A DNA stretch of 41,402 bases from a virus. The DNA is taken from the UHGV virus genome UHGV-0107473. One strand, 5' to 3'. The notes beneath the pieces are model-generated. The model was not told the origin of the DNA. It made no database searches and saw only the letters and a program-made list of their open reading frames with translations. The translations under genes were made by a program, and so were the position numbers. The first letter of the stretch is position 1, and the number at the start of each line of letters is the position of its first letter. This document shows, one piece after another, positions 8,268 through 21,490 of the stretch.

Positions 8268-9587
8268 CTACAGGCTACGGTGAACAAAATCGATAAGTCT
8301 GATAAAGTCGTTAATCTTGTTTTGGTATTCTGAATCCGATCTGCTACAGTTACTAATTTCTTTACTCGCTAAATCATAACGTTGATAAAAACGATGATTT
8401 GCACCAAGTTCTGATTTTCCACAATAGGCGATAGTCATTTGCGAAAGCCAGATTGGAAAATGATATTCTTTTCCGCAATCTTTAACCAAAATGCTACCGT
8501 CATGTTTAAGCTCAAACTGATAGCTCATGTATTCCGGTTCGGCTCTGATTCCGCGCCCTAACGCCTGAACAAAAACGCCGTCTTTGCCGATTTTAGAGGA
8601 CGCTTCTTTTAATTGCTTTTCGAATTCGGTAAGAATGTTTTTATGCGGAACATCCAAAAAAGCCATTTGCTTTAATATCGTTTGCATATCTTCCGAATCC
8701 AGAAAACTACTAATCAGCTTTTCATAGCTCGCGTCTATCGTCGGTGTTGCGCAGTTTACTTGCTCTTTTTCAGGATAAGGCACCAAAACATTGTATGCCT
8801 TATTGTGGGCATAGTTGCTAAACCGGTTTAGTTCCGCCGTAGCGGGACGTTCTCCGGTTGACTGGTGTAACCCTACAGGGTTAGCCGCCTGGCTTGTTTC
8901 CGGCTCGCTGTCGCGGTAAAACATGAGCACGATATCGCTTGACTTAATCACCTCGCACGATTCCGGCGTGACTTTGACAAACGCCACGCCTTCAACATTT
9001 GCTACTTCAGCGGCTTTTCTCATAGTTGCCGAGCGAATAGCCATTCGGTCTAAATCACGTTTAAGTTGATCGGCTACTTTTGTCATAGCTTCGCTAAAAG
9101 CCGTCGTATTAAAATTGCCAAAAATTTGTTTTTTAATAGCTTCTTCACGTTTCAAATTAAGCCATTCGTAAAGAAATTCCGCGCTAATCATCGGAATACC
9201 CAAAGATAAAGCGCGATTGATTTTCATTTTGTTAGGCTCATTGCCCACGATAACGCAATCTACTTTTTCAGTAATCGCGCCGCGAATTTTGCCATGATAA
9301 TTAATCGTTAGCGCGTCGGTTATTTCTATCCGTTTGTAAGGTGTTCCTGTAAACGCAAACGATTTGCCTTTTAGAAAATTTTTATCTTCTATCAAACAAT
9401 CGTTGATAATAACAAAATCATTTTCGTTTAAATTTAGAAAACGATCTAGAATTAAACCCGGCTTTACTTCGTCCGGTTCAACTAACATAATAGTTTTGTC
9501 ATTTTCCTGCATTACGTTAACCACACGTAACGGGTATTTGCCCTGTAAAGGATATTTGCCGTTAATCAGTTTGGTTTCAATAGTCAT
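8268..9587 (-). CDS. BRCT-domain protein (439 aa)
   Basis: Residues about 72-150 (KGKSFAFTGTPYKRIEITDALTINYHGKIRGAITEKVDCVIVGNEPNKMKINRALSLGIPMISAEFLYEWL) match the LigA-type BRCT pattern. The rest has no recognizable motifs. Confidence 0.6.
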   Translation of the reverse strand: MTIETKLINGKYPLQGKYPLRVVNVMQENDKTIMLVEPDEVKPGLILDRFLNLNENDFVIINDCLIEDKNFLKGKSFAFTGTPYKRIEITDALTINYHGKIRGAITEKVDCVIVGNEPNKMKINRALSLGIPMISAEFLYEWLNLKREEAIKKQIFGNFNTTAFSEAMTKVADQLKRDLDRMAIRSATMRKAAEVANVEGVAFVKVTPESCEVIKSSDIVLMFYRDSEPETSQAANPVGLHQSTGERPATAELNRFSNYAHNKAYNVLVPYPEKEQVNCATPTIDASYEKLISSFLDSEDMQTILKQMAFLDVPHKNILTEFEKQLKEASSKIGKDGVFVQALGRGIRAEPEYMSYQFELKHDGSILVKDCGKEYHFPIWLSQMTIAYCGKSELGANHRFYQRYDLASKEISNCSRSDSEYQNKINDFIRLIDFVHRSL

Positions 9588-9788
9588 TTACTTTTCCTCA
9601 ATTTGAATAAATATATCTGAATCGTTAGGGTTATTTAAATCGATTGATTTAAGCTCAATTAAAATGTTATGATGTTCGCTTAACTCCTTATAGAATTCTT
9701 CGATTTGGATTACTGGTAAAAACAAAATATAAGTTGGTTTAAGCGCAATTTTATAAAAAGGTATTACTATGGAAGCCATTTTATTCAT
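9588..9788 (-). CDS. Hypothetical 66 aa
   Basis: ORF track. Confidence 0.35.
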   Translation of the reverse strand: MNKMASIVIPFYKIALKPTYILFLPVIQIEEFYKELSEHHNILIELKSIDLNNPNDSDIFIQIEEK

Positions 9789-10023
9789 TCCATAACTTAA
9801 TAGTTACTAATCGGTTTTCAATCGCTTTTAAAGACTGGCAATTTTCTAAAGATTTGAATTTTCTTTTTGTCATAGCTTCATGTGGAAATACTGAAGCCCT
9901 GTTAATATCTTTTACCCATGTAATAATTTCTCGAGTCGGGGCGCATCCAGACGATCTAGTTACACAAACTGCAAATTCACCGTTTTCATTGATAAAAATA
10001 AAGCCTTTTCGTTCATCACTCAT
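9781..10023 (-). CDS. Hypothetical 80 aa
   Basis: ORF track. Confidence 0.4.
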   Translation of the reverse strand: MSDERKGFIFINENGEFAVCVTRSSGCAPTREIITWVKDINRASVFPHEAMTKRKFKSLENCQSLKAIENRLVTIKLWNE

Positions 10024-10024
10024 T

Positions 10025-10285
10025 TTATTTACTCCAATGAGAAGAAGCCATTTTGTTATAAACCGCGTTACCGTTAGGACGCGAGTTAACCCAAGATTCT
10101 ACAGCTTTGTCGGCGCCTTTTTCGGTCTTATATCCTTTGGTAATTTTTACCGAAGTCATTTCACCGTAACCATAATCTTTTTCAAACATGCCATAAAACA
10201 AACCATCAATATTTCTGACAATGGCGCGTTTAAATGCTTTGTTTCCGGTTTCTTTGTTGATTCGGTTTTCAAAGTAGATAGCCAT
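10025..10285 (-). CDS. Hypothetical protein (likely starts at MAIYFENRI with an AGGA RBS)
   Basis: The ORF-track ORF 10025..10348 has an internal Met with a good RBS. Confidence 0.4.
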   Translation of the reverse strand: MAIYFENRINKETGNKAFKRAIVRNIDGLFYGMFEKDYGYGEMTSVKITKGYKTEKGADKAVESWVNSRPNGNAVYNKMASSHWSK

Positions 10286-10378
10286 TTTGATTCGTCCTAT
10301 GTTTCGTTTTGATGTACTAACTATACAATCGACTTTAAAAATCGTCAATCATTATTTTGATTAAGTTTTGTAAAGACG

Positions 10379-10406
10379 TAAAAAAGCCGCATTTTCAGCG
10401 GCTTAG
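10379..10406 (-). terminator. Rho-independent terminator downstream of the primase-helicase and a small basic ORF
   Basis: aagccgc-attttca-gcggctt hairpin with a T-run on the minus strand. Confidence 0.65.
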
Positions 10407-10409
10407 TGT

Positions 10410-10574
10410 CTACTTTGTTTTCTTAAATCGTCTGAATGATTCCCGGCTTTCTCTATGCCAATGCTCATCATGTGACGGATGGTCTAACCCGGTAAAATCT
10501 TTGTTGCCACGCTCATACCATTTCTTTTTCTTACTGGTGTTTACAAGCTTTCCGTTTACAGTTTTGTAGCTCAT
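10410..10574 (-). CDS. Small basic 54-aa protein with His cluster (…DHPSHDEHWHRE…), not in the ORF track
   Basis: My own translation. Its ATG lies 1 nt after the primase-helicase stop. Followed directly by a terminator. Confidence 0.4.
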   Translation of the reverse strand: MSYKTVNGKLVNTSKKKKWYERGNKDFTGLDHPSHDEHWHRESRESFRRFKKTK

Positions 10575-10575
10575 T

Positions 10576-12888
10576 TTATAGTCCAAATGCTTTAGGGTTT
10601 GATATCGAAAACGCTCGTTGCGCGGTTCCGTATTCGGTTACTAACTTAGGCTTTGAAATTTCTAACAAATCCCCTCTATCCATCATGGTTTGTAGCGTCT
10701 TTTTAATGGCGTTTGTCGCGCCTGTTCTATCCTTTTTAAAGTGAACATTTCGAGCAAGCTTTTTATGAAGATAAGCATATGTTATGATTCGTTCACTATG
10801 CAATCTTGCGTTTCCTTCCCCAGCATACGCTTTGATTTCAGACCAGCTACTAATAACATAGGTTTTAACGGTTTCACAAAGTTTAACTATCTGTTGCGTT
10901 TCTTCGTTGTTAACACCGACTTCACCCATATCAAAACGACGCATGATGTTATTAACATCGGCTAAAACAAGGTTTATAGCCCATGTAGCCATATCGGAAT
11001 TAACAACAGGGTCGTAAGGGTTACAGCCAACGGCAATCAATGCTGAAAGCTTGAGCGCTTTAATGTGGGCGCGGTTCCAAAGTTCAGAGTTAACTTGGTT
11101 ATTACTTGCCCGCATTTTATCATCAACATAAAGGTTAAACTGTTTAAGCATCGAATTTGCATTTTCATCTAGCTGAACTTCAATCGCTTTGTGTTGATTA
11201 TTCAAATTTAAACAGTTGGCGCATACTTGAGCGGTTTTGTCTATTAAATCAAAATCAGGTCTAACGTTTAAATGGTTTTCGTTTAAATACGGGCGCTTAC
11301 CATAGTATTCGATAATAGTAAAGCGAGGCAACAAACCTTCTGTAATCATACCTTCGTGTAGTCCTTCGTAAAATCTTTCGGGAGTAGATTCGCCTAAAAG
11401 AGTTACCGAAGGGGCTAATACATTATCGGTGTTTTTTTCTCTATCGCTGTAGATACTTTGTTTTAAAACCTTTCCGTTGCCCGATTTGTTATAAATATCG
11501 AGTAGCATACGGCGTAAGCCTAACATGTGCGGCGATGCGTTTATGCTTCCCATTTGTTGTAAATGCAAACCAAATTCGCCAATTATACTGACAAAACTTT
11601 TAGATGATTTCGACAAATACTTAATTAATGCTTGCGGGGAATTTATTTCCCCCGGCCCGATAAATTCCATCGCCGAAGGAACCATTTTTACAACTTCGCG
11701 CATTATCAAGTCGATACCGCTTGAAATAGCTTCTTTACCAGTACCCGTCCCAGCGAGAAGCAACACGTATTGATTAAGGCCAGTACCGGAAATGTTATAA
11801 GCCCTGCCCACAATACCAGCAAATAAGCCAATCGCCCCGGCTAAGGCGATTTCGGGTACTGGTCGCGGGGCCGCTGCGTAAATGAATTGTGCAATCTCGC
11901 CAACCAGACCAGGCGGAACGGTAAACGCCGAGGCTACAGGCGTCGCAACTTCCGTAACATTTTGCGGGATATCTTCAACGATTTGCGATTGGGGAATATC
12001 GGCATTTTGCATCCTTTTTTCGATTATGGCGTTAATTTGATCGCGTAAACCTTCGATATCAACAGGCGGTAGCATTCGGTCAAAACATTTATCGAGCGCA
12101 TATTTTAAGCGATATTCCGCGCGTGATTTTTCGCGTTGCCCTAGCTTTGATTCTAAAAACAGCTTTTTAACTTGCGCCCGGTTTTCACTATAAAATGCGA
12201 TAATGTCTATCAATGCCAAATCGGCTTCGGATTGCGAAGGGTAATATTTTTGCCAATTACCGTAGTCATATAAATCTATAAATTTTTCGGCATTAGCCGC
12301 ATTACGCGCCATTTCCATCACTTCAGAATCATCGCGTTTAGCTTCGTCTAACCCGGCATAGTAGGCGGCAGCGTTTGGCCCTTTGCCCATTTGCGACCAA
12401 AGCGCATTAAAAAGCGCGTCATAATCTTTAATTTCTTCGTTTCTAAAAACATTCCCTGTCATAGTCATAAATCGAAGATTGGAATACACTTCAATTGAGG
12501 AACGTTTACGACCTGAAGGAATCGACCCTTTAATGATGATGTGTAATCCGGTTCCACTTGGCGAACGTTCAGCATAAGAAACGAATTCGTTATAGATTCG
12601 TAACTGGCGGTCGGCGTTACCCTGGTCGCCTTTTGTATCGTCCAAGTCAATAAATCCGTATGGGTCAGATTCGGTTAACACGAAACCCAAACCCGAATAC
12701 ATACCGGAATTCAGAGCGCCTAAAGCATCGTGATAGCTTCCCCATGTAGAAGAATCGTTTACCTTAGCCATTCTTCCGTTTATAGGGGAATAGGGAATTT
12801 TAGTAGGTTTGTCGCCGTCCGATTCCTCGAAGCGCCAAACGACCCATTGGTTATAGGCCCGCATTTCAACGGGAATATTATCGAACAT
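10576..12888 (-). CDS. Primase-helicase (N-terminal PrimPol-like domain plus C-terminal SF3/D5-type helicase)
   Basis: N-terminus YNQWVVWRFEE...GLGFVLTESDPYGFIDLDD is PrimPol-like. Walker A LLAGTGTGKEAISSG. 770 aa. Confidence 0.75.
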   Translation of the reverse strand: MFDNIPVEMRAYNQWVVWRFEESDGDKPTKIPYSPINGRMAKVNDSSTWGSYHDALGALNSGMYSGLGFVLTESDPYGFIDLDDTKGDQGNADRQLRIYNEFVSYAERSPSGTGLHIIIKGSIPSGRKRSSIEVYSNLRFMTMTGNVFRNEEIKDYDALFNALWSQMGKGPNAAAYYAGLDEAKRDDSEVMEMARNAANAEKFIDLYDYGNWQKYYPSQSEADLALIDIIAFYSENRAQVKKLFLESKLGQREKSRAEYRLKYALDKCFDRMLPPVDIEGLRDQINAIIEKRMQNADIPQSQIVEDIPQNVTEVATPVASAFTVPPGLVGEIAQFIYAAAPRPVPEIALAGAIGLFAGIVGRAYNISGTGLNQYVLLLAGTGTGKEAISSGIDLIMREVVKMVPSAMEFIGPGEINSPQALIKYLSKSSKSFVSIIGEFGLHLQQMGSINASPHMLGLRRMLLDIYNKSGNGKVLKQSIYSDREKNTDNVLAPSVTLLGESTPERFYEGLHEGMITEGLLPRFTIIEYYGKRPYLNENHLNVRPDFDLIDKTAQVCANCLNLNNQHKAIEVQLDENANSMLKQFNLYVDDKMRASNNQVNSELWNRAHIKALKLSALIAVGCNPYDPVVNSDMATWAINLVLADVNNIMRRFDMGEVGVNNEETQQIVKLCETVKTYVISSWSEIKAYAGEGNARLHSERIITYAYLHKKLARNVHFKKDRTGATNAIKKTLQTMMDRGDLLEISKPKLVTEYGTAQRAFSISNPKAFGL

Positions 12889-13270: not shown

Positions 13271-13708
13271 ATGTTTAATATGAATCCTAACGCTAATCGC
13301 GACGCTCTTTTAACCAAATGGCAAGATGCTAAAAACGCTTTAGACGCCGCTAAAGCCGCCGAAGCTTATTTGCGTCGTCAGGTTATGGAAACTCTTTTTA
13401 ACTTTGACGAAAACGAGCTTCGCGAAGGCACTGAAAACATCGAATTGGGTAACGGCTACGTTGCAAAGGCGGTTTTCAAAACTTCTTACAAACTCACTTC
13501 CGACGTTGATTCCATGTTAGACAAGCTGGAAGAAGAAAGCGAAGAAGGCGAGTTTATCGCTAAACGCTTAGTTAATTTCAAACCCGAGCTTTCTGTTAGC
13601 GAATACAAAAAGCTTCCCGCAAACTTACGCGCAATTGCTAACATGGCTGTTGTCACTAAACCTGCTATGCCAAGTTTTGAAATTGTCGCACCAAAAGCTA
13701 AAAAATAA
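13271..13708 (+). CDS. Hypothetical protein, first gene of the replication operon
   Basis: AAGGA RBS. 145 aa. No recognizable motif. Confidence 0.55.
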   Translation: MFNMNPNANRDALLTKWQDAKNALDAAKAAEAYLRRQVMETLFNFDENELREGTENIELGNGYVAKAVFKTSYKLTSDVDSMLDKLEEESEEGEFIAKRLVNFKPELSVSEYKKLPANLRAIANMAVVTKPAMPSFEIVAPKAKK

Positions 13709-13753: not shown

Positions 13754-14461
13754 ATGAATGCTCGCGACTTACAGCCTTCCGGTAATCTTGCTAAAAAATT
13801 CGGCGTTAAGTCGATTGTTTATGGCAAAGCTGGAATAGGCAAAACGCCGATAATTCAAACGGCACCGCGCCCGGTTTTACTTGCGGCTGAACCGGGTTTG
13901 CTTTCCATGAAAGGGACTAATGTTCCCACATGGGAATGCTACGACGCCAATAGCCCGACCGATGTTAAAAAATCATATAACCGGGTTATAGAATTTTTTG
14001 ATTGGTTTTTTCGCTCTAATGAGTCTAAAAATTTCGATACGTTAGGCGTTGATAGTTTATCGCAAGTCTGTGAAATTATATTGCGATACGAATTAGGGCG
14101 TAATAAAGATGGGCGAAAAGCCTATGGTGAATTATCGCGCTTTATTATGGAAAGCATTTGCGAACCTTTATATTATATGCCTAACAAGCATTTATATTTA
14201 ATTTGCAAGCAAGCTGTAAATGACGAAAACGGGCAGGTTGTTAAATGCCCTTATTTTCCGGGGCAAGATTTAAACGTTAAAATTCCTCATTTATTTGATG
14301 AAATTTTGCATTTAGATGAATATAATATTCCCGGTGTTGGTAAACAAATTGCCTTTCGTTGCAAGCCTAGTTTTGATACTAAGGCTCGCGATAGAAGCGG
14401 GATGTTAAACGAGTTCGAACCGCCAAACCTCGGCAATATTTTTGCCAAATGCTCACAATAG
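13754..14461 (+). CDS. Sak4-like RecA-family ATPase (AAA_24)
   Basis: N-terminal Walker A KSIVYGKAGIGKTP followed by LLAAEPG. About 235 aa, typical of Sak4. Confidence 0.65.
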   Translation: MNARDLQPSGNLAKKFGVKSIVYGKAGIGKTPIIQTAPRPVLLAAEPGLLSMKGTNVPTWECYDANSPTDVKKSYNRVIEFFDWFFRSNESKNFDTLGVDSLSQVCEIILRYELGRNKDGRKAYGELSRFIMESICEPLYYMPNKHLYLICKQAVNDENGQVVKCPYFPGQDLNVKIPHLFDEILHLDEYNIPGVGKQIAFRCKPSFDTKARDRSGMLNEFEPPNLGNIFAKCSQ

Positions 14462-14490: not shown

Positions 14491-15240
14491 ATGGCTCAAT
14501 TAATCAGCCCATTTAACCCGAATAACTACAACCCTGAACAAAGCGCGGGTCAATTGCCGCTCGGCAAACATCCGGTAGTTATCGAAAGTTCCGAAGTAAA
14601 AGCAAATAAAGCTAACGACGGCGGTTATCTTCAGTTCAATCTGAAAATTATCGACGGGCCTAACGCTGGTATTACTGGCCCGTATCGCCTTAATCTTTAT
14701 CACGCTGACCAAACCACTTGCGAAATTGCTAACCGCCAGCTTTCGGCAGTTTGCCACGTTGTTAACGTTTTCGGCGATTTGACGTCTACCGACCCGCTTC
14801 ACAATATCCCGTTTATTGTCGAAGTAGTTCCGCAAAAAAATAAACCTGAATATACGCAGGTTTCGAAAGTATTCGATATTAACGGCAACGAACCGGGTAA
14901 AGCGCCAGCGGGCCAGGCTCAAACGCAACAGCCGCAAAACCAGCAACAGCAGCCGCATGGCGGAGCGGGCCAGCAGTGGGGCGGTCAACAGCAACAACCA
15001 GCTAACAACGGCGGTTGGGGCCAGCCTCCGGCAAACAACGGTCAGCAACAGCCGGAACAGCAGCAACCGCAACAGCCTAACGGCGGTCAGCAATGGGGAG
15101 CGCCGCAGGGCGGGCAACAGCCAGCTTGGGGTAACTCCCAGCAACAGCAGCAGCCGCATGGCGCTGAAAACGGCAACGGCTGGCAACAGCAGCAGCCGCA
15201 AAACAACGGAAATGGCGGAACGCCGTGGGGCCGGAAATAA
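14491..15240 (+). CDS. DUF669-like protein with a Q/G/P/W-rich low-complexity C-terminal tail (SSB-linker-like)
   Basis: Globular N-terminal domain of about 130 aa. The tail of about 115 aa has repeated GGQQWG/GGWGQ/NGWQQQQ units. Immediately downstream of the Sak4-like gene. Confidence 0.55.
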   Translation: MAQLISPFNPNNYNPEQSAGQLPLGKHPVVIESSEVKANKANDGGYLQFNLKIIDGPNAGITGPYRLNLYHADQTTCEIANRQLSAVCHVVNVFGDLTSTDPLHNIPFIVEVVPQKNKPEYTQVSKVFDINGNEPGKAPAGQAQTQQPQNQQQQPHGGAGQQWGGQQQQPANNGGWGQPPANNGQQQPEQQQPQQPNGGQQWGAPQGGQQPAWGNSQQQQQPHGAENGNGWQQQQPQNNGNGGTPWGRK

Positions 15241-15250
15241 AATAAAATTT

Positions 15251-15272
15251 GGGGCAAGGAAGCCCCATTTTA
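15251..15272 (+). terminator. Weak hairpin or attenuator after the DUF669-like gene
   Basis: ggggc-aaggaa-gcccc followed by atttt. Only a 5-bp stem. Confidence 0.25.
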
Positions 15273-15286
15273 AAAGGCGTCTAATT

Positions 15287-15793
15287 ATGGGTAGATTTCA
15301 GGAAGTTTTACCCGTTCCTACATGCTGCGATTGTTGCGGGTCAAAACGAATAATCTTTATTAAATCCGAAAGAAAAATTAAATCGTCAAGCTGGCCTTAT
15401 ATCTGGTTTTGTCAATCATGCAAAGCTTCCGTGTTTTGCCATCCTGAAACAAATAACCCATTGGGATATATGGCGGATAGCAAAACGAGACTTTTACGTA
15501 GAATATTGCATATAAAATTCGATGTAATATGGAAAACAGGAAAGTTAAAAAGGCGTGACTGTTACCGTTGGCTCGCATTAAAGTTAAACATATCTATAGA
15601 TAATTGTCATATATCTTGGCTAACCCCAAGACAATTAAAACAGGCAATTACAATAGTTGAAGAATTTTTAAATACCATCGAACCGGAAAAGAAGGTTTAT
15701 AAAAATGAGCGAAAACGAAAAGAAAAATACAAGCGCAATCGAGATAGATTTAAATACAAAAGGTACGGCGTTTCAATTAGCGAAACAGATTAA
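15287..15793 (+). CDS. Cys-rich zinc-ribbon-like protein with a very basic C-terminus (169 aa from MGRFQEV)
   Basis: CCDCCGSKR...CQSC...C. C-terminus KNERKRKEKYKRNRDRFKYKRYG. AAGG RBS. The upstream part of the ORF-track ORF 14957..15793 is a repeat-region artifact. Confidence 0.45.
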   Translation: MGRFQEVLPVPTCCDCCGSKRIIFIKSERKIKSSSWPYIWFCQSCKASVFCHPETNNPLGYMADSKTRLLRRILHIKFDVIWKTGKLKRRDCYRWLALKLNISIDNCHISWLTPRQLKQAITIVEEFLNTIEPEKKVYKNERKRKEKYKRNRDRFKYKRYGVSISETD

Positions 15794-16754
15794 AAGCGAT
15801 ATTGATGAATATTGCGAAAAGAAATTTGATGATGGTTTTCGTTGGCATCTTGGCGCGTCTTTGATTGGTCACGAATGCAAACGATACCTGTTTTATGTTT
15901 TTCGCTGGTGTTTTAAAGAAAATTTCGACGGGAGAATGCAACGCCTGTTTAATCGTGGGCATCGTGAAGAAGAACGTTTTATAGAATGGCTGGAAGGCAT
16001 CGGCTTTACTGTTTATGTTGACGACTGGTCAAACTGGTCGTTGTATTGGCATAATGAAAGCGATTCTTATTTTATTGATAAAAAAGATATTGATTTACAT
16101 GCTGGTGGTTATGATCTAGTAGATGTAACCGATAACGAAACCCATAGAAAAATAGCTAAAGCTATGGGTGTTAAGTTTAAACAATATCGTATATCTGAAG
16201 TTAACGGGCATTTCGGCGGCTCGTTAGATGGGATTGCCGTTGCGCCTGAACGTTACGGATTAAAAGAACCCTTATTACTTGAATTTAAAACTAATGGCAC
16301 TGGCGCGGGATATACCAAATTAGTTAACAGCGGTATCCAGTTAGCTAAACCTGTTCATTTCTCGCAAATGTCAACTTACGGAACCAATCCGGCATATGGA
16401 TTTAAATATGGTCTGTATTTAAATACAAATAAAAATGACGACGACATTCACGTTGAAATTGTATTTTTAAATGAAGAGCTGGGAAAACAAAACATTGTCA
16501 AAGCTGAAAAAATTATATTTTCTGAAACTCCACCGCCAAGACTTTCTGAAAATCCAACTTTTCATAAGTGCCAGTATTGCGCGGCTAAAGATATTTGCCA
16601 TACCGGGGCGCTTGTAAACAGAAACTGCCGAAGCTGTAAGTTTTCCAAGCCTGTTGAAAATGCGGAATTTTATTGCACGATTCATAATGGTATAATTCCG
16701 CGCGATTATATTATGACGACTTGCGATAAATATTCGAGCATTAACGATGATTAA
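15705..16754 (+). CDS. Cas4/RecB-like PD-(D/E)XK exonuclease with a 4Cys Fe-S cluster signature (exact start uncertain)
   Basis: GASLIGHECKRYLFYVF (N-terminal Cys). LLLEFKT (ExK). C-terminal CQYCAAKDIC (C-x2-C-x5-C). Confidence 0.65.
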   Translation: MSENEKKNTSAIEIDLNTKGTAFQLAKQIKSDIDEYCEKKFDDGFRWHLGASLIGHECKRYLFYVFRWCFKENFDGRMQRLFNRGHREEERFIEWLEGIGFTVYVDDWSNWSLYWHNESDSYFIDKKDIDLHAGGYDLVDVTDNETHRKIAKAMGVKFKQYRISEVNGHFGGSLDGIAVAPERYGLKEPLLLEFKTNGTGAGYTKLVNSGIQLAKPVHFSQMSTYGTNPAYGFKYGLYLNTNKNDDDIHVEIVFLNEELGKQNIVKAEKIIFSETPPPRLSENPTFHKCQYCAAKDICHTGALVNRNCRSCKFSKPVENAEFYCTIHNGIIPRDYIMTTCDKYSSINDD

Positions 16755-18393
16755 ATTACGATACTATCAGGAAGATGCGATAAGCGCTATTTTTAAATAT
16801 TTTAGTTCCCACAAAGGGAACCCGATTTTAGCGCTTCCGACAGGAACAGGGAAAAGTATTGTTATCGCCGAATTTGTTCGGCGAGTTTTGCAAACTTGGC
16901 CCGGTCAAAGAATAATAATGCTTACGCATGTTAAAGAGCTTATCGCACAAAACGCCGCTAAATTACAATCTATTTGGCCTAATGCCCCTATGGGGATTTA
17001 TAGCGCTGGTCTGAATAGCCGGGATATGATGATGCCGATAGTATTTGGCGGTGTTCAGTCTGTTTCTAAAGCCATTGAGCGGGAGTTAAAAGAACCTAAC
17101 AACTATATCCCTGACCATAGAAAGCATTTCGGGCATCGAGATTTAATTATTATTGACGAATGTCATTTAGTAAGCGATTCCGAAAATACGCAATATCAAT
17201 ATATTATAAGTGAATTGCGAAAAATCAATCCGCTTATAAAAGTTATTGGTTTAAGCGCAACACCATATCGATTAAAACACGGTATGCTTACAGAAGGTGA
17301 TAGTATTTTTACGGATATACCTTACGATATTACAGGCGTAGAATCGTTTAACAGGCTTATCGCTGAAGGTTATCTAGCGCCTTTATATCCGAGGCCGACA
17401 AATGCTGTAATAAACACAAATGGCGTAGGGCTATCAGGTGGAGATTTTAATAATAAGCAAATGAGCGCTGAAGTCGATAAAGTAATTTATCAGGCCGTTA
17501 GTGAAATGGTGCAATTGGGGCAAGATAGAAAAGCGTGGCTAGTTTTTTCGCAAGGTGTTGAAAATGCCGAAAAGATATCGTCATTGTTAAATAGTTTTGG
17601 CGTAGATGCTTGCGCTACTCATTCTAAATTGTCAGCTAAACAAAATGACGAAATTATTAGCGCTTACAAACACGGCGAGCTAAGAGCTTTGGTAAACGCT
17701 AACAAATTAACAACAGGATTTGACCATCCGCCAACCGATTTAATAGGCGTATTACGCGCCACAATGTCACCGGGGTTATGGGTACAAATGTTAGGGCGTG
17801 GAACAAGGCCAAGCCCTGAAACGGGAAAAACCCATTGCTTAGTTTTAGACTTTGCAGGAAACACTAAGCGACTTGGCCCGATAAACGACCCGGTTAAACC
17901 CCGAAAACCGGGCAAGGGCGAACCCGGTGATGCGATAGTTAAGCTATGCAAAATTTGCAACACCTACAATCACGGTTCGGCTAGATTTTGCGTCTGTTGT
18001 GGGAATGAATTTACATTCGAAAACAAGATTTTTAAAACCGCTTCGACTGAACAGTTAATAGCCAGCGATTTGCCAGTAATTGAATCTTACAAAGTCGATA
18101 AAGTGTTGTATAATCTACACGAAAAGAAAAACAAAAGCGGGTCGTTAATGTCGCCGCCGTCGATGAGAGTTACCTATTTTTGCGGCTTGCGTCGATTCGA
18201 CGAATGGGTGTGTTTTGAGCATAAAGGTTTCCCGTTACATAAAGCCCACGAATGGTGGAAGCAACGCCATTCTAGCGAACCGCCTGTTTTCACATGGCAA
18301 GCATTACAGGCAGTTTCCGAACTAAGAGCGCCCGAGTCGATTAAGGTTTGGGTAAACAAAGATAATCCAGAAATTGTTTCTGCGGAGTGGTAA
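16747..18393 (+). CDS. SF2 DEAH-box helicase with a C-terminal zinc ribbon
   Basis: Walker A ALPTGTGKS. DEAH box IIIDECH. CKICN...CVCCG. Confidence 0.75.
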   Translation: MIKLRYYQEDAISAIFKYFSSHKGNPILALPTGTGKSIVIAEFVRRVLQTWPGQRIIMLTHVKELIAQNAAKLQSIWPNAPMGIYSAGLNSRDMMMPIVFGGVQSVSKAIERELKEPNNYIPDHRKHFGHRDLIIIDECHLVSDSENTQYQYIISELRKINPLIKVIGLSATPYRLKHGMLTEGDSIFTDIPYDITGVESFNRLIAEGYLAPLYPRPTNAVINTNGVGLSGGDFNNKQMSAEVDKVIYQAVSEMVQLGQDRKAWLVFSQGVENAEKISSLLNSFGVDACATHSKLSAKQNDEIISAYKHGELRALVNANKLTTGFDHPPTDLIGVLRATMSPGLWVQMLGRGTRPSPETGKTHCLVLDFAGNTKRLGPINDPVKPRKPGKGEPGDAIVKLCKICNTYNHGSARFCVCCGNEFTFENKIFKTASTEQLIASDLPVIESYKVDKVLYNLHEKKNKSGSLMSPPSMRVTYFCGLRRFDEWVCFEHKGFPLHKAHEWWKQRHSSEPPVFTWQALQAVSELRAPESIKVWVNKDNPEIVSAEW

Positions 18394-18395
18394 AA

Positions 18396-19517
18396 ATGAG
18401 CGAATACCAGATAGATAACAAAGGAATAGACAATTTATTTGACGATGAACCGAAACGCAAAACAAGGGCTAAAAAGCCTGTTGTTGTCAATCCAGCGCAA
18501 TCGTTTTTAGACGCTGTAACTTTCGTATCCCATGCGCAAAAGAAAACTGGAGAACCGTCGCATACTCATTGCGCTATTTCTGGCGGTTATGTTTGCGCGT
18601 CAAATGGCGAACTAACAATAGCGGCTAAAGTTGAAGAAAATATTTCAATTGCGCCTAACACATTTAAACTTATTGCGGCGCTAAAGCAAGTAGTTAATGA
18701 TGTTGCTATAACAAAACTTTCTGATTTAAGTTTGGCTATAACTTCAGGCAATTTTAAAGCCGTTATTCCGTGTTATGACACTTCAGAAATATTCGGTATG
18801 AGCGCCCCGGATGAACCAATAGCGGTTGTTAATAACGATTTGATTTTGGCAATTGGCGACGTTATCGGATTAGCTAACGAAACAGCCGCCGAACCTCTAT
18901 TTGCAGGGATTATGATTCAAAAAAATACGGTTGTTGCTACTAACGGGGCTGTAATATTTGAGGCGTGGCATGGAATAGATTTGCCTCCGGCTAAAGTAAT
19001 TCCAAAATCTGCGGCTAAAGCGTTAGTAAAATGCAAAAAGAATTTAGTAAAATTGGGGTTTTCCGATTCTTCTATTACTTTTTGGTTTGATGACGATTCT
19101 TTTATTAAAACTCAATTGTATAAATTTGTTTACCCGCAATATGAACAAGCTATGCAGACTGATAAAGACTATGAAGAAATTCCGTCGACGTTTTTCGATG
19201 CTCTGAAAACTATAGCGCCTTTCGTCGAAGGAAATAAAGTAGTTTTTAAAAACGGTATGATTGTTACAGATTATCGCGAAGAAAACGCTTCTACTTATAA
19301 AATTGATTCGCTGCCTGAAGGAATTATGTTTAATCATAAGTATTTGCTAATGCTTAAACCAGTAGCTACTAATTTCACCTTTGACGATAACCCGGCAAAA
19401 CTATATTTCTATGGCCCTAGAACTAGAGGCGCTGTAATGGGATTGAGCAAAGGCGATTTGCATAAAGACAATGCCGAAAGTCAAGCTATGGAAATAGACG
19501 ACGATATTCCGTTTTAA
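18396..19517 (+). CDS. Sliding clamp (DnaN/beta-clamp homolog) with a C-terminal SSB-tip-like motif DDDIPF
   Basis: ETAAEPLFAGIMIQKNTVVATNGAVIF parallels the beta-clamp domain-2 motif (RYYLNGMLFE...VATDGHRLA). FNHKYLLMLK...AVMGL parallels the beta-clamp C-terminus (FNVSYVLDVL...VVMPMRL). It ends ...AMEIDDDIPF, like E. coli SSB (MDFDDDIPF). Confidence 0.55.
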   Translation: MSEYQIDNKGIDNLFDDEPKRKTRAKKPVVVNPAQSFLDAVTFVSHAQKKTGEPSHTHCAISGGYVCASNGELTIAAKVEENISIAPNTFKLIAALKQVVNDVAITKLSDLSLAITSGNFKAVIPCYDTSEIFGMSAPDEPIAVVNNDLILAIGDVIGLANETAAEPLFAGIMIQKNTVVATNGAVIFEAWHGIDLPPAKVIPKSAAKALVKCKKNLVKLGFSDSSITFWFDDDSFIKTQLYKFVYPQYEQAMQTDKDYEEIPSTFFDALKTIAPFVEGNKVVFKNGMIVTDYREENASTYKIDSLPEGIMFNHKYLLMLKPVATNFTFDDNPAKLYFYGPRTRGAVMGLSKGDLHKDNAESQAMEIDDDIPF

Positions 19518-19528
19518 GGGGCTGAACT

Positions 19529-21490
19529 ATGTTAGATAATCAAGGTTTTATAACGATAGGAAAACAACAACCTACCGAATTAGCTAAACTGGTAAGGCGC
19601 GAAGCAAAGCCTATAATTCGTTTTTCCGACGACGAATTAATGAAACTTACGCCGGGTAGTGTTTTAGTTTTCGATATAGAATGCTATATGAATTTCTTTT
19701 ATATAGCGTTCAAATGCCCGCTTACCGGAAAAGTTGTAGATTTCGAACTTTCGGAAAGATCTACAATTAACGTAATGAAGCTACAATTTATTTTGTGGCG
19801 TTTCCTTATTGTGGGCTTTAACTCAAATGCTTATGATATGATGATGATTAGACTTTGCTTAGAAGGTTTACAGCCTGTAGAACTAAAAGGATGGTCTAAC
19901 CAAATAATTAATAGTGATATGCGAGACTGGCAAACCGAACAGTTAATAAATAAAGAATTCGGTAAAAAGCCTTTTAACATAAACCACATAGATTTAATCG
20001 AAGTTTGCCCGTTACAGGCATCGTTAAAACTTTACGGCGGTCGATTGCATTCTACCCGTATGCAAGATTTACCGTTTGATCATATGTCTGAATTAAAAGA
20101 CGCTGAAAAAGACGAAGTTATTTATTATTGCGCTAACGATTTAGACGTAACTATTTTATTGTTTGTTAACTTAAAAGACCAATTAGAATTACGGTGCAAA
20201 CTTTCTGAAGAACATGGAATAGATTTACGTTCTAAATCAGATGCTCAAATCGCCGAAGCTGTTATTAAAAAAGAAGTTGAACGAATTACAGGTTTTGCAC
20301 CTCAAAAGCCTAAAATTGAATATGGTAAAAAATTTAAATTTATACCTCCTGAACATTTGCATTTTCAAACTGATTACATGAAAGAAAAGTTTAATCAGAT
20401 TTTAAACATGGAATTTGAAATTAACGACAAAGGTACTGTAGTTTTAGAAGATTTAAAAGAATTTGATTTAGTTATTGGTAAAACTGTTTATCGTATGGGT
20501 AAAGGCGGTTTACATAGTAAAGAAAAAATAGCATCATACCGCGCTACTGACACCATGCGAATTGTAGACCGCGATGTAGAATCTTATTACCCACGAATGA
20601 TTTTAAACTCCGGCCTTTATCCTGAAACTATGGGGTGCGTGTTTCTTGATGTTTTTGAAGTCATTGTAGACAGGCGATTAGAAGCAAAACATTCAGGAGA
20701 CAAAAAGACCGCCGATAGCTTAAAGATTACCATTAACGGTACTTTTGGAAAACTTGGGTCGAAATATTCAACCATGTACGCGCCAAATCTATTAATTCAG
20801 GTTACTGTAGGCGGTCAATTAAACCTGTTAATGCTAATTGAAATGTTAGAGTTACACGGAATAACGGTAGTTAGTGCTAATACCGACGGTATCGTTAGCT
20901 TAGTCGAAAAACATCAAGAAGAAACTTTCTTAAACATAATTACAGGATGGGAACATTTAACTAAACTTAAAACAGAAGAAACCGAATATAAGGCGTTATT
21001 TAGTCGCGATGTTAACAATTATATCGCAGTAAAACATGATAATTCGTGCAAACTGAAAGGAACATATTCTAATCCGTGGGCAGATGAAAAAATGGCAATT
21101 TTCCGTTTTCACAAAAACCCTGTTCACACAATTTGCATTGAAGCTGTAACCAAATTAATAACTGAAAACATACCGATTGAAAACACAATAGTAAATTGCA
21201 AAGATATAACTAAATTTATTATTGTGCGTAACGTTAAAGGCGGCGGTGAAAAGAACGGAATTTATTTAGGTAAGGCCGTAAGGTGGTATTATGGGGCTGG
21301 CGAACGTGGCGCAATAAACTATGTGGCGAGTGGAAATAAAGTAGCAACAAGCGAAGGCGCTGTACCTTTAATGGATTTACCAAACGAATTACCTAATGAT
21401 TTAGATTATGAAAGATATATTAATATAGCTAGCGAAATGCTATATGATATCGGATATTATAGACGACCTGAACAAATTATGTTTTTCTAA
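19529..21490 (+). CDS. Family B DNA polymerase with 3'-5' exonuclease domain (compact, 653 aa)
   Basis: Exo I DIEC. Exo II FNSNAYD. Exo III YYCANDLD. Pol motif A DVESYYP (DxxSLYPS). Motif B KITINGTFGK (KxxxNSxYG). Motif C NTDGIV (DTDS-like). Confidence 0.8.
   Translation: MLDNQGFITIGKQQPTELAKLVRREAKPIIRFSDDELMKLTPGSVLVFDIECYMNFFYIAFKCPLTGKVVDFELSERSTINVMKLQFILWRFLIVGFNSNAYDMMMIRLCLEGLQPVELKGWSNQIINSDMRDWQTEQLINKEFGKKPFNINHIDLIEVCPLQASLKLYGGRLHSTRMQDLPFDHMSELKDAEKDEVIYYCANDLDVTILLFVNLKDQLELRCKLSEEHGIDLRSKSDAQIAEAVIKKEVERITGFAPQKPKIEYGKKFKFIPPEHLHFQTDYMKEKFNQILNMEFEINDKGTVVLEDLKEFDLVIGKTVYRMGKGGLHSKEKIASYRATDTMRIVDRDVESYYPRMILNSGLYPETMGCVFLDVFEVIVDRRLEAKHSGDKKTADSLKITINGTFGKLGSKYSTMYAPNLLIQVTVGGQLNLLMLIEMLELHGITVVSANTDGIVSLVEKHQEETFLNIITGWEHLTKLKTEETEYKALFSRDVNNYIAVKHDNSCKLKGTYSNPWADEKMAIFRFHKNPVHTICIEAVTKLITENIPIENTIVNCKDITKFIIVRNVKGGGEKNGIYLGKAVRWYYGAGERGAINYVASGNKVATSEGAVPLMDLPNELPNDLDYERYINIASEMLYDIGYYRRPEQIMFF

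Follow-up and report, generated by a model that had tools for sequence, protein, structure and literature searches.

A sliding-clamp gene with an SSB-type tail

The virus genome UHGV-0107473 (41,402 nucleotides; this whole stretch is referred to below as the window) corresponds approximately to an entire siphophage genome of about 41 kb. At positions 18396..19517 on the plus strand, stop codon included, it carries a gene for a DnaN-like sliding clamp whose 373-amino-acid product has a tail of the type found at the C-terminus of bacterial SSB (single-stranded DNA-binding protein). This gene is flanked by a superfamily 2 (SF2) helicase gene (16747-18393) and by a family-B DNA polymerase gene (19529-21490) that starts 11 bases downstream. 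Its ATG at 18396 has a GGAG Shine-Dalgarno site upstream, and the stop codon of the helicase gene lies three bases earlier. A cultured relative is Klebsiella phage vB_KmiS-Kmi2C (Kmi2C below), with 84% identity across the replication genes, and the clamp orthologue of this phage carries the annotation 'DNA polymerase processivity factor'.

An initial annotation, made from the sequence alone, had placed a clamp of 373 amino acids ending in AMEIDDDIPF between the helicase and the polymerase, and both the translation of the open reading frame (ORF) and the neighbouring genes agree with it. The intact ORF has the C-terminus SQAMEIDDDIPF followed by a stop; the terminal stretch before this stop is ESQAMEIDDDIPF, of which AMEIDDDIPF forms the final ten residues. 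The codons of the last six residues and the stop, GAC GAC GAT ATT CCG TTT TAA, occupy positions 19497-19517.

Four parts of the protein, all encoded on the plus strand, can be distinguished by the confidence of the structure model (predicted local distance difference test, pLDDT). Residues 1-33 (18396..18494; pLDDT 47-57) are a disordered N-terminal extension, residues 34-350 (18495..19445; pLDDT mostly >90) form the three-domain beta-clamp core, residues 351-367 (19446..19496; pLDDT 54-60) are a variable low-confidence linker, SKGDLHKDNAESQAMEI, and residues 368-373 (19497..19514) are the tip DDDIPF, identical to the C-terminal hexapeptide of Escherichia coli SSB.

The N-terminal extension consists of the acidic/hydrophobic peptide IDNKGIDNLFDDE followed by the basic stretch KRKTRAKK, and a KPRARK-like basic stretch is found at the clamp N-terminus in nearly all homologues. 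In addition, a short N-terminal motif, (I/L)(E/D)N(D/N)VP(I/L)P, is present in 19 of the 47 loci (~40%) in which the clamp bears the tip; the window has the variant IDNKGIDNLFDD.

The protein is a remote phage branch of the DnaN fold

We found that the clamp matches PHROG 947 'DNA polymerase processivity factor' (expectation value E=2e-51), and that a profile of 56 clamp homologues gives a collinear match to H. pylori DnaN in the Protein Data Bank (PDB; E=6e-4). A Pfam scan gave no match at E<=0.1, including the DNA_pol3_beta domains, and a single-sequence search of the PDB with the clamp gave none either, which indicates that the homology to DnaN is remote. The AlphaFold2 model of the monomer (pLDDT 89, predicted template-modelling score 0.82) shows the arrangement by which a DnaN-type clamp is recognised, with three tandem beta-alpha-beta-beta-beta domains in one chain of ~370 amino acids. 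Its top 50 Foldseek neighbours in the PDB are all bacterial beta clamps, with E about 3e-19, a template-modelling score of about 0.72 and about 360 aligned columns at 12-17% identity. By the same comparison the fold is that of DnaN and not the oligonucleotide-binding (OB) fold that membership of the SSB family calls for. Collectively, these results bear out the DnaN-like assignment of the initial annotation and identify the clamp as a remote phage branch of the DnaN fold, outside the curated cellular family.

Both the N- and the C-terminal tails are modelled as flexible or disordered. The extra residues after the clamp fold, which had been put at roughly 20, number about 23 (residues 351-373) and have a pLDDT of 54-60 throughout. 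The core itself is acidic (isoelectric point 5.3, net charge about -7). An acidic core has been linked with ring clamps that need loaders (Kazlauskas & Venclovas, PMC3201878), and the acidity seen here is consistent with a loader-requiring ring clamp, the ring and the dependence on a loader being assumed. No clamp loader is annotated in Kmi2C, and none appeared in Pfam and PHROG scans of nine of the larger unassigned ORFs of the window and of the primase.

In fold and in its acidic core, the window clamp resembles both bacterial DnaN and the phage PolIII-beta homologues that have no loader of their own (PMC3201878, PMC4889955). Further points in common are a polymerase with a C-terminal hydrophobic motif and the lack of a phage loader. 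Cellular DnaN differs in that it is only 12-17% identical to the window clamp, has neither the N-terminal basic tail present in the phage clamps nor a C-terminal SSB-type tail, and partners Pol III alpha, whereas the partner of the window clamp is a family-B enzyme.

The tip of the clamp is conserved and the linker is not

The C-terminal motif of SSB (SSB-Ct) is textbook knowledge: it is the docking peptide at the centre of genome maintenance in bacteria, and is seen as a feature that belongs to SSBs. E. coli SSB ends in MDFDDDIPF, and this host peptide binds chi, a protein of the clamp loader, and many other proteins (PMC11436948). As the initial annotation had noted, the DDDIPF of the clamp is the exact SSB-Ct hexapeptide. 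Conservation of the tail in homologues had been set in advance as the test of that reading, and we found a tip of the [DE]D[DE]IPF type in 70 of 87 clusters of clamp homologues drawn from a collection of 5.8 billion proteins. Across the 70 tip-bearing clusters, the terminal residue is always Phe (70/70), preceded by Pro in 67/70 and Ile in 65/70; the acidic run is made up of Asp or Glu at position -4 (66/70), Asp at -5 (60/70) and Asp or Glu at -6 (52/70). At position -7, where E. coli SSB has Phe, Tyr is found in 22/70, and the consensus of the clamp family often has an aromatic residue at -7 together with acidic residues at -8/-9. The linker that joins the final clamp strand to the tip, on the other hand, varies from 2 to 43 residues and is unalignable across homologues.

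The tail therefore combines three features of an SSB-Ct motif, namely a C-terminal IPF end, an acidic run from -4 to -6 and a disordered, unconserved linker, and is built like the tail of an SSB, in which a disordered linker leads to a conserved tip. These data show that within the clamp tail strong purifying selection acts on the peptide only. The conservation, along with the clean start and stop context of the gene, rules out chance or an annotation artefact as the source of the tip. In an exhaustive hidden Markov model (HMM) search, the clamp family comprised 1826 representatives at 50% identity, 818 of them at E<=1e-30, and the tip was present in 49 of the top 149 of these 50%-identity representatives. 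Among the 273 ORFs of at least 30 amino acids in the window, no second acidic, aromatic-ended C-terminus was found, save on one spurious ORF of 34 amino acids.

The same tip is found on other proteins of the replication module

We compared 80 loci from IMG/VR and 14 stretches from cultured phages, with ORFs called mechanically in all of them. A module is common to all loci, consisting of a DUF7173 protein, Sak4, a DUF669 SSB, a DUF3268 protein, a Cas4-like exonuclease, the SF2 helicase, the clamp and the polymerase, with a prim-pol primase nearby. For 92 loci, chosen by similarity to the query so that the counts are not prevalences, the tip is carried by the clamp in 47, by a small protein in 36, by both in 2 and by the helicase in 2; 3 loci have none and 2 are uninformative. 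This shows that in nearly all lineages the tip is carried once per module, by a replisome protein or by a small protein encoded beside the helicase.

In loci with a short clamp (about 330-345 amino acids) that stops just past RGxxxG, the helicase gene is immediately followed, on the same strand, by a small ORF with a [DE][DE]IPF end. The encoded protein has 60-130 amino acids and belongs to PHROG 23504 ('unknown function') and to no Pfam family. Its invariant pattern, CxxC...C...PP...C, contains four Cys residues, and the model consists of one helix and a Cys knot, for which Foldseek returned no significant structural neighbour. Over 120 clusters of this family, the protein ends with F in 113, P in 117 and I/V/L in 114 at the respective positions. 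Cultured carriers are E. coli phage Shy, Paracoccus R3, Sphingomonas Lucius, Rhizobium RHEph04, Vibrio VpKK5, Microcystis Me-ZS1 and Burkholderia BcepGomr. The Shy protein (locus L082, 6526-6756, CDS0026) ends in NGCAQHDFDIPF (...HDFDIPF), and further examples lie at 9254-9505 of L020 and 9458-9688 of L084. Some of these tips are only weakly acidic, such as YTSTIPF in BcepGomr and WQIDIPF in VpKK5.

The window exonuclease of the Cas4-domain type (15705..16754, plus strand; PHROG 1990, E=7e-100) also has a C-terminal four-Cys segment; homology of the small protein to that segment was considered and is not supported, as the HMM matches were weak and the hhalign probability was 1.8%. Separately, a subclade of clamps (P0016, P0017, P0027 and P0028; locus L037) has the pattern H...C.C..C directly before EIPF, for example HPKDCRCADCEIPF. 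The pattern resembles a zinc knuckle and is reminiscent of the Cys knot found ahead of the tip in the small protein.

In a third arrangement the tip is carried by the helicase, on a disordered C-terminal extension of 40-110 amino acids, and neither the clamp nor a small protein is tipped in those loci. The JenK1 helicase (Nonagvirus; L083, 74-2077) ends in ...LPPDFDDDIPF, of which PPDFDDDIPF parallels the PPMDFDDDIPF of E. coli SSB. The helicases of slur01 (Seuratvirus), of PAJD-1 and DoCa3 (Nipunavirus) and of BUCT627 (Bixiavirus) end in ...DDPDYVPF, ...ADLDDDIPF and ...TYEDDDIPF, respectively; besides that of JenK1, the tip-bearing helicases of these genera are encoded at 1433-3208 of L089, 601-2511 of L092, 601-2376 of L093 and 1113-3089 of L094. 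Such linker-borne tips, as in JenK1, copy the host SSB-Ct over 8-10 residues. The window helicase (ResIII/DEAD and Helicase_C domains; 16747..18393, plus strand) has no tip, whereas these orthologues elsewhere do. In the Queuovirinae-type loci L083 and L086-L090, a 7-deazaguanine (queuosine-like) DNA-modification cluster lies between the helicase and small-protein genes and the clamp gene, and the tip carrier remains beside the helicase and not the clamp.

Both dual carriers, L048 (small protein 1006-1227, clamp 1536-2690) and L061 (small protein 9747-9983, clamp 9980-11041), have an acidic tip on the clamp (DDDIPF and EDDIPF) and a non-acidic one on the small protein (FLIPF and MKIPF), and may represent an evolutionary intermediate. 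L041, first scored as tip-less, has DDDIPY in a shifted frame, and variant ends (PPF, IQF and ISV) are found in L008, L056, L022 and L044. In L019, L023 and L025, which form one subclade inside the clamp-tip clade, no protein in the locus has a detectable IPF tip in any frame.

In a neighbour-joining tree of the clamp core, which is rough, the clamp-tip sequences, bar the two dual carriers, form one clade nested among small-protein lineages. This clade takes in Kmi2C, the window phage and Septimatrevirus, while the helicase-tip lineages are the Queuovirinae and Bixiavirus. From this topology the small protein appears to be the ancestral carrier, with at least 4 changes of carrier by parsimony.

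The SSB of the module has a different C-terminus

The SSB encoded in the window is of the DUF669 type (14491..15240, plus strand; Pfam DUF669, PHROG 6015), with an SSB-like linker rich in Q, G, P and N, and ends in TPWGRK (15220-15237). An acidic tip is absent in 60 of 60 orthologues, the final 10 residues of which have a net charge between 0 and +2, and a Trp is found within the last 7 residues in 56 of the 60 (PWGQR, PWGAR and similar; PWG[QA][RK]). At the level of sequence, PWGxR is a second conserved C-terminal motif of the module, hitherto undescribed. DUF669 proteins have been said to have acidic tails (PMC4889955), and the DUF669 protein of this module stands in contrast to that description.

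Furthermore, three clamp homologues of 410-492 amino acids (P0085, P0339 and P0239) have long C-terminal extensions ending in DGWGAR, DDGWGAR and SGWGTQA. The resemblance of these ends to the PWGxR of DUF669 suggests that the latter tip may be portable too.

The tip as a proposed portable tether

Any explanation must suit the clamp, the helicase and the small protein, because the tip occurs on all three. We propose that the DnaN-type clamp would serve the adjacent family-B polymerase, and that its flexible, fast-evolving C-terminal linker would present an SSB-Ct-type peptide, made of acidic residues and then Ile-Pro-Phe-COOH. The tip would be the docking handle of the whole replication module, present in one copy on a non-SSB component in nearly every lineage: ancestrally on the small four-Cys protein, on the clamp in the clade of Kmi2C, the window phage and Septimatrevirus, and on the helicase in the Queuovirinae and Bixiavirus. 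The terminal Phe with its carboxylate and the Asp residues would insert into an SSB-Ct-type pocket of a partner, which would thereby be tethered to the clamp at the primer-template junction. On balance, we consider it probable that the tip is such a portable SSB-Ct-type tether, plugging a pocket-bearing partner into the phage replisome.

In bacteria, the SSB-Ct resembles the clamp tail in the identity of DDDIPF, in its extreme C-terminal position and in its disordered, poorly conserved linker. The carrier is different: in bacteria it is an OB-fold tetramer that binds single-stranded DNA, and here it is a DnaN-fold clamp or, in relatives, an SF2 helicase or a four-Cys mini-protein. Bacterial SSB coats single-stranded DNA and a clamp does not, so the peptide would instead mark the primer-template junction or fork. 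The C-terminus of the clamp emerges beside the strand RGAVMGL, the counterpart of which in E. coli beta we take to line the partner-binding face and its peptide cleft; the tail should accordingly project toward the side of the polymerase and loader.

The polymerase is a poor candidate for the partner. In Me-ZS1 and VpKK5 a family-A polymerase replaces the family-B enzyme (PolB) and the tip carrier is kept. This disfavours the polymerase as the partner, and likewise weakens the suggestion of the initial annotation that the tip couples PolB to host factors.

The window PolB itself (19529..21490, plus strand; 653 amino acids; PHROG 1252, E=5e-198) has its best PDB matches, at E about 1e-4, in S. 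solfataricus PolB1, E. coli Pol II and Pol alpha. It ends in EQIMFF (21470-21487), and most orthologues end in FF or xF (TASLFF, KQISFF, KQLQFF), with the exception of the Queuovirinae polymerases, which have no motif of this type. The EQIMFF end looks like a candidate clamp-binding motif, and this bears on the idea that the tip might itself be a clamp-binding or self-regulating peptide, with IPF-COOH sitting in the hydrophobic cleft of the phage's own clamp. The tip would then auto-inhibit or cross-link the clamp here, and in other lineages it would hold the helicase or the small protein on the clamp; its relocation could in that case be understood as a coupling of helicase and clamp. Clamp-binding motifs are indeed often C-terminal with hydrophobic or aromatic ends, and the tail does leave the clamp next to its C-terminal strand RGAVMGL. 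Against this, the tip has neither the Gln nor the Leu of the QL[SD]LF consensus and agrees with SSB-Ct along 6-9 residues, the acidic run among them, AlphaFold leaves the tail undocked on the clamp (pLDDT 54-60), the polymerase already has a conserved ...LFF/QIMFF end for that cleft, and it is hard to rationalise why a clamp would block its own cleft. We regard this explanation as very improbable. A role of the tip as a degradation tag was also rejected, since there is no evidence for it and it leaves the match to SSB-Ct unexplained.

Host and phage proteins as possible partners

Returning to the tether, the class of partner that we prefer, although with somewhat less than even confidence, is that of host SSB-interacting proteins, which a phage SSB without the tip is unable to recruit. 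The initial annotation had likewise suggested that the tip could hijack the host SSB interactome, for example chi-psi of the clamp loader. This class is favoured because the phage SSB has no such tip, because there is no phage clamp loader and because 8-10 residues of the linker-borne tips reproduce the motif of the host. Within it, chi of the clamp loader is the most attractive candidate, given that a ring-type acidic clamp has no phage loader here; RNase HI and topoisomerase III are alternative candidates. A stronger form of this idea, which we put forward only tentatively, is that in a large family of siphophages the partner-recruiting hub function of SSB has become detached and portable, the exact host SSB-Ct peptide, borne by the clamp, the helicase or a dedicated four-Cys adaptor, delivering host SSB-interacting proteins to the replisome, including, for the clamp version, the host clamp loader via chi.

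Several observations weigh against a host partner or against a general need for the tip. Phages whose hosts are alpha-, beta- and gamma-proteobacteria, and one cyanobacterium, all retain the module together with the tip; to our knowledge chi is confined to proteobacteria. Chi can therefore not be the universal partner, as the tip persists where chi should be absent. The barely acidic tips of some small proteins, judged by their residues, would be a better fit to a co-evolving phage partner than to the SSB-interacting proteins of the host, for which the Asp residues matter. Finally, the tip is presumably dispensable in some backgrounds, because the subclade of L019, L023 and L025 has none that is detectable.

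A rival possibility is that the partner is encoded by the phage and that no host protein is involved. The likeliest such partner would be the Sak4-like RecA-family annealing ATPase (13754..14461, plus strand; PF13479, PHROG 124), the gene of which is adjacent to that of DUF669 in nearly all loci, and the alternatives are the DUF669 SSB, the primase, and the DUF7173, DUF3268 and Cas4 exonuclease proteins. In that case the tail would link the clamp or helicase to recombination-dependent replication or to some other activity of the phage, much as the gp4 and gp2.5 tails of phage T7 bind the T7 polymerase. In phage HK620, which has the same Sak4 and DUF669 gene pair, the final six residues of the DUF669-type SSB, NDYPPF, are an SSB-Ct-like hexapeptide required for Sak4 binding to SSB-coated single-stranded DNA and for the stimulation of annealing (PMC5928155). 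HK620 differs in that its tip is on the SSB, whereas here the SSB ends in PWGxR and it is the clamp, the helicase or the small protein that bears the acidic IPF tip. Sak4 thus adjoins a DUF669 protein that has no such tip, which fits a phage partner, although the conserved PWGxR of DUF669 (56/60) may already be the handle for Sak4. A phage partner is also supported by the retention of the tip, as of the module, whatever the host phylum, and by the weakly acidic small-protein tips, which suggest a dedicated pocket that co-evolves.

T7 offers a further parallel, since its helicase-primase gp4, a non-SSB replisome protein, shares with its SSB, gp2.5, an acidic Phe-terminated tail that binds the gp5 polymerase and organises the replisome (PMC12339929), and helicase tips occur in the present module too. 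The T7 tails (e.g. ...DTDF) are generically acidic with a final Phe and are not copies of the host SSB-Ct; both SSB and helicase are tailed in T7, whereas the SSB of this module has no such tail; and T7 has no sliding clamp. Moreover, the polymerase is an unlikely partner here, where PolA and PolB are swapped with the tip retained, and a near-perfect copy of the host SSB-Ct over 8-10 residues is more than would be called for by an interaction private to the phage. Taken by itself, a phage-encoded partner is doubtful, and yet we judge it nearly as likely as a host one.

The copying of the host motif could also be explained without any recruitment to the phage fork. SSB-Ct peptides on abundant early proteins could act as decoys that compete with host SSB for ExoI, RecQ and PriA, thereby shutting down host replication restart, repair or nucleases, or blunting defences that depend on them. 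Apart from the tip and a Cys knot there is little to the small carrier, which is what a competitor would look like, and phage proteins with SSB-Ct-like tips have been proposed to interfere with ExoI/SbcB (Bas52_0087; bioRxiv 10.64898/2026.04.29.721553). A decoy, however, does not need a clamp or helicase as anchor, and the tip moves only onto replisome proteins (clamp and helicase) that are encoded beside the small protein, rather than onto arbitrary abundant proteins, with the carrier gene always inside the replication operon. For these reasons we consider a decoy function improbable. Bas52_0087 itself, which ends in FDDDIPF, is a further phage protein with a host-type SSB-Ct and is thought to interface with host factors that process single-stranded DNA; its carrier is OB-fold and SSB-like, whereas the carriers here are not SSBs.

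Novelty and implications

The clamp family and the SSB-Ct motif are already known, and the nearest precedents are T7 gp4/gp2.5, the SSB-Sak4 pair of HK620 and Bas52_0087. The initial annotation was aware of no precedent for the clamp tail, and in the open-access literature we likewise found no report of a clamp, a helicase or a small four-Cys protein that bears an SSB-Ct tip; neither the Kmi2C paper nor two comparative studies of viral replicases (PMC3201878, PMC4889955) mention the tip. We judge the relocation pattern to be of more interest than the single case of the clamp. The pattern suggests a mode of connecting the parts of a viral replisome that has not been described before.

If the tether is real, selection would be acting on the SSB-Ct peptide as an autonomous, movable module in phages whose cognate SSB bears a different tip, given that the peptide has stayed conserved on a sliding clamp over a long span of evolution and changes places between clamp, helicase and mini-protein. 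Likewise, recruitment of the host loader through chi by a clamp-borne tip would explain how a phage beta clamp without its own loader is loaded, and would provide a testable answer to the question of how such PolIII-beta homologues function (a long-standing one from comparative genomics; PMC3201878, PMC4889955). Natural bivalent displays of SSB-Ct would also lend themselves to probing or inhibiting the SSB interactome. For each architecture there are tractable phages in culture: Kmi2C, Pseudomonas phage 73 and PaMx42 for the clamp, Shy for the small protein, and the 9g-like JenK1 and slur01 for the helicase.

Other genes in the window

A BRCT-domain protein of 439 amino acids is encoded at 8268-9587 on the minus strand (PF00533, E=3e-8) and resembles the BRCT of NAD-dependent ligase. 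We considered it as a reader of acidic-x-x-Phe-COOH ends and rejected it as not module-wide, since among the compared loci, whose flanks may fall short of this gene, a homologue was seen in Kmi2C alone. The primase (10576..12888, minus strand; PHROG 3022, E=2e-253) is of the prim-pol type with a helicase-like C-terminal part. The DUF7173 protein (13271-13708, plus strand) and the DUF3268 zinc-finger protein (15233-15793, plus strand) are module members found in 51 and 44 loci, respectively. Across the 3′ half of the DUF669 gene, overlapping long ORFs run at 14500-15201 (minus strand) and 14957-15793 (plus strand); the overlapping ORFs of this region are probably by-products of the repetitive Q/G/P-rich coding sequence and not genes.

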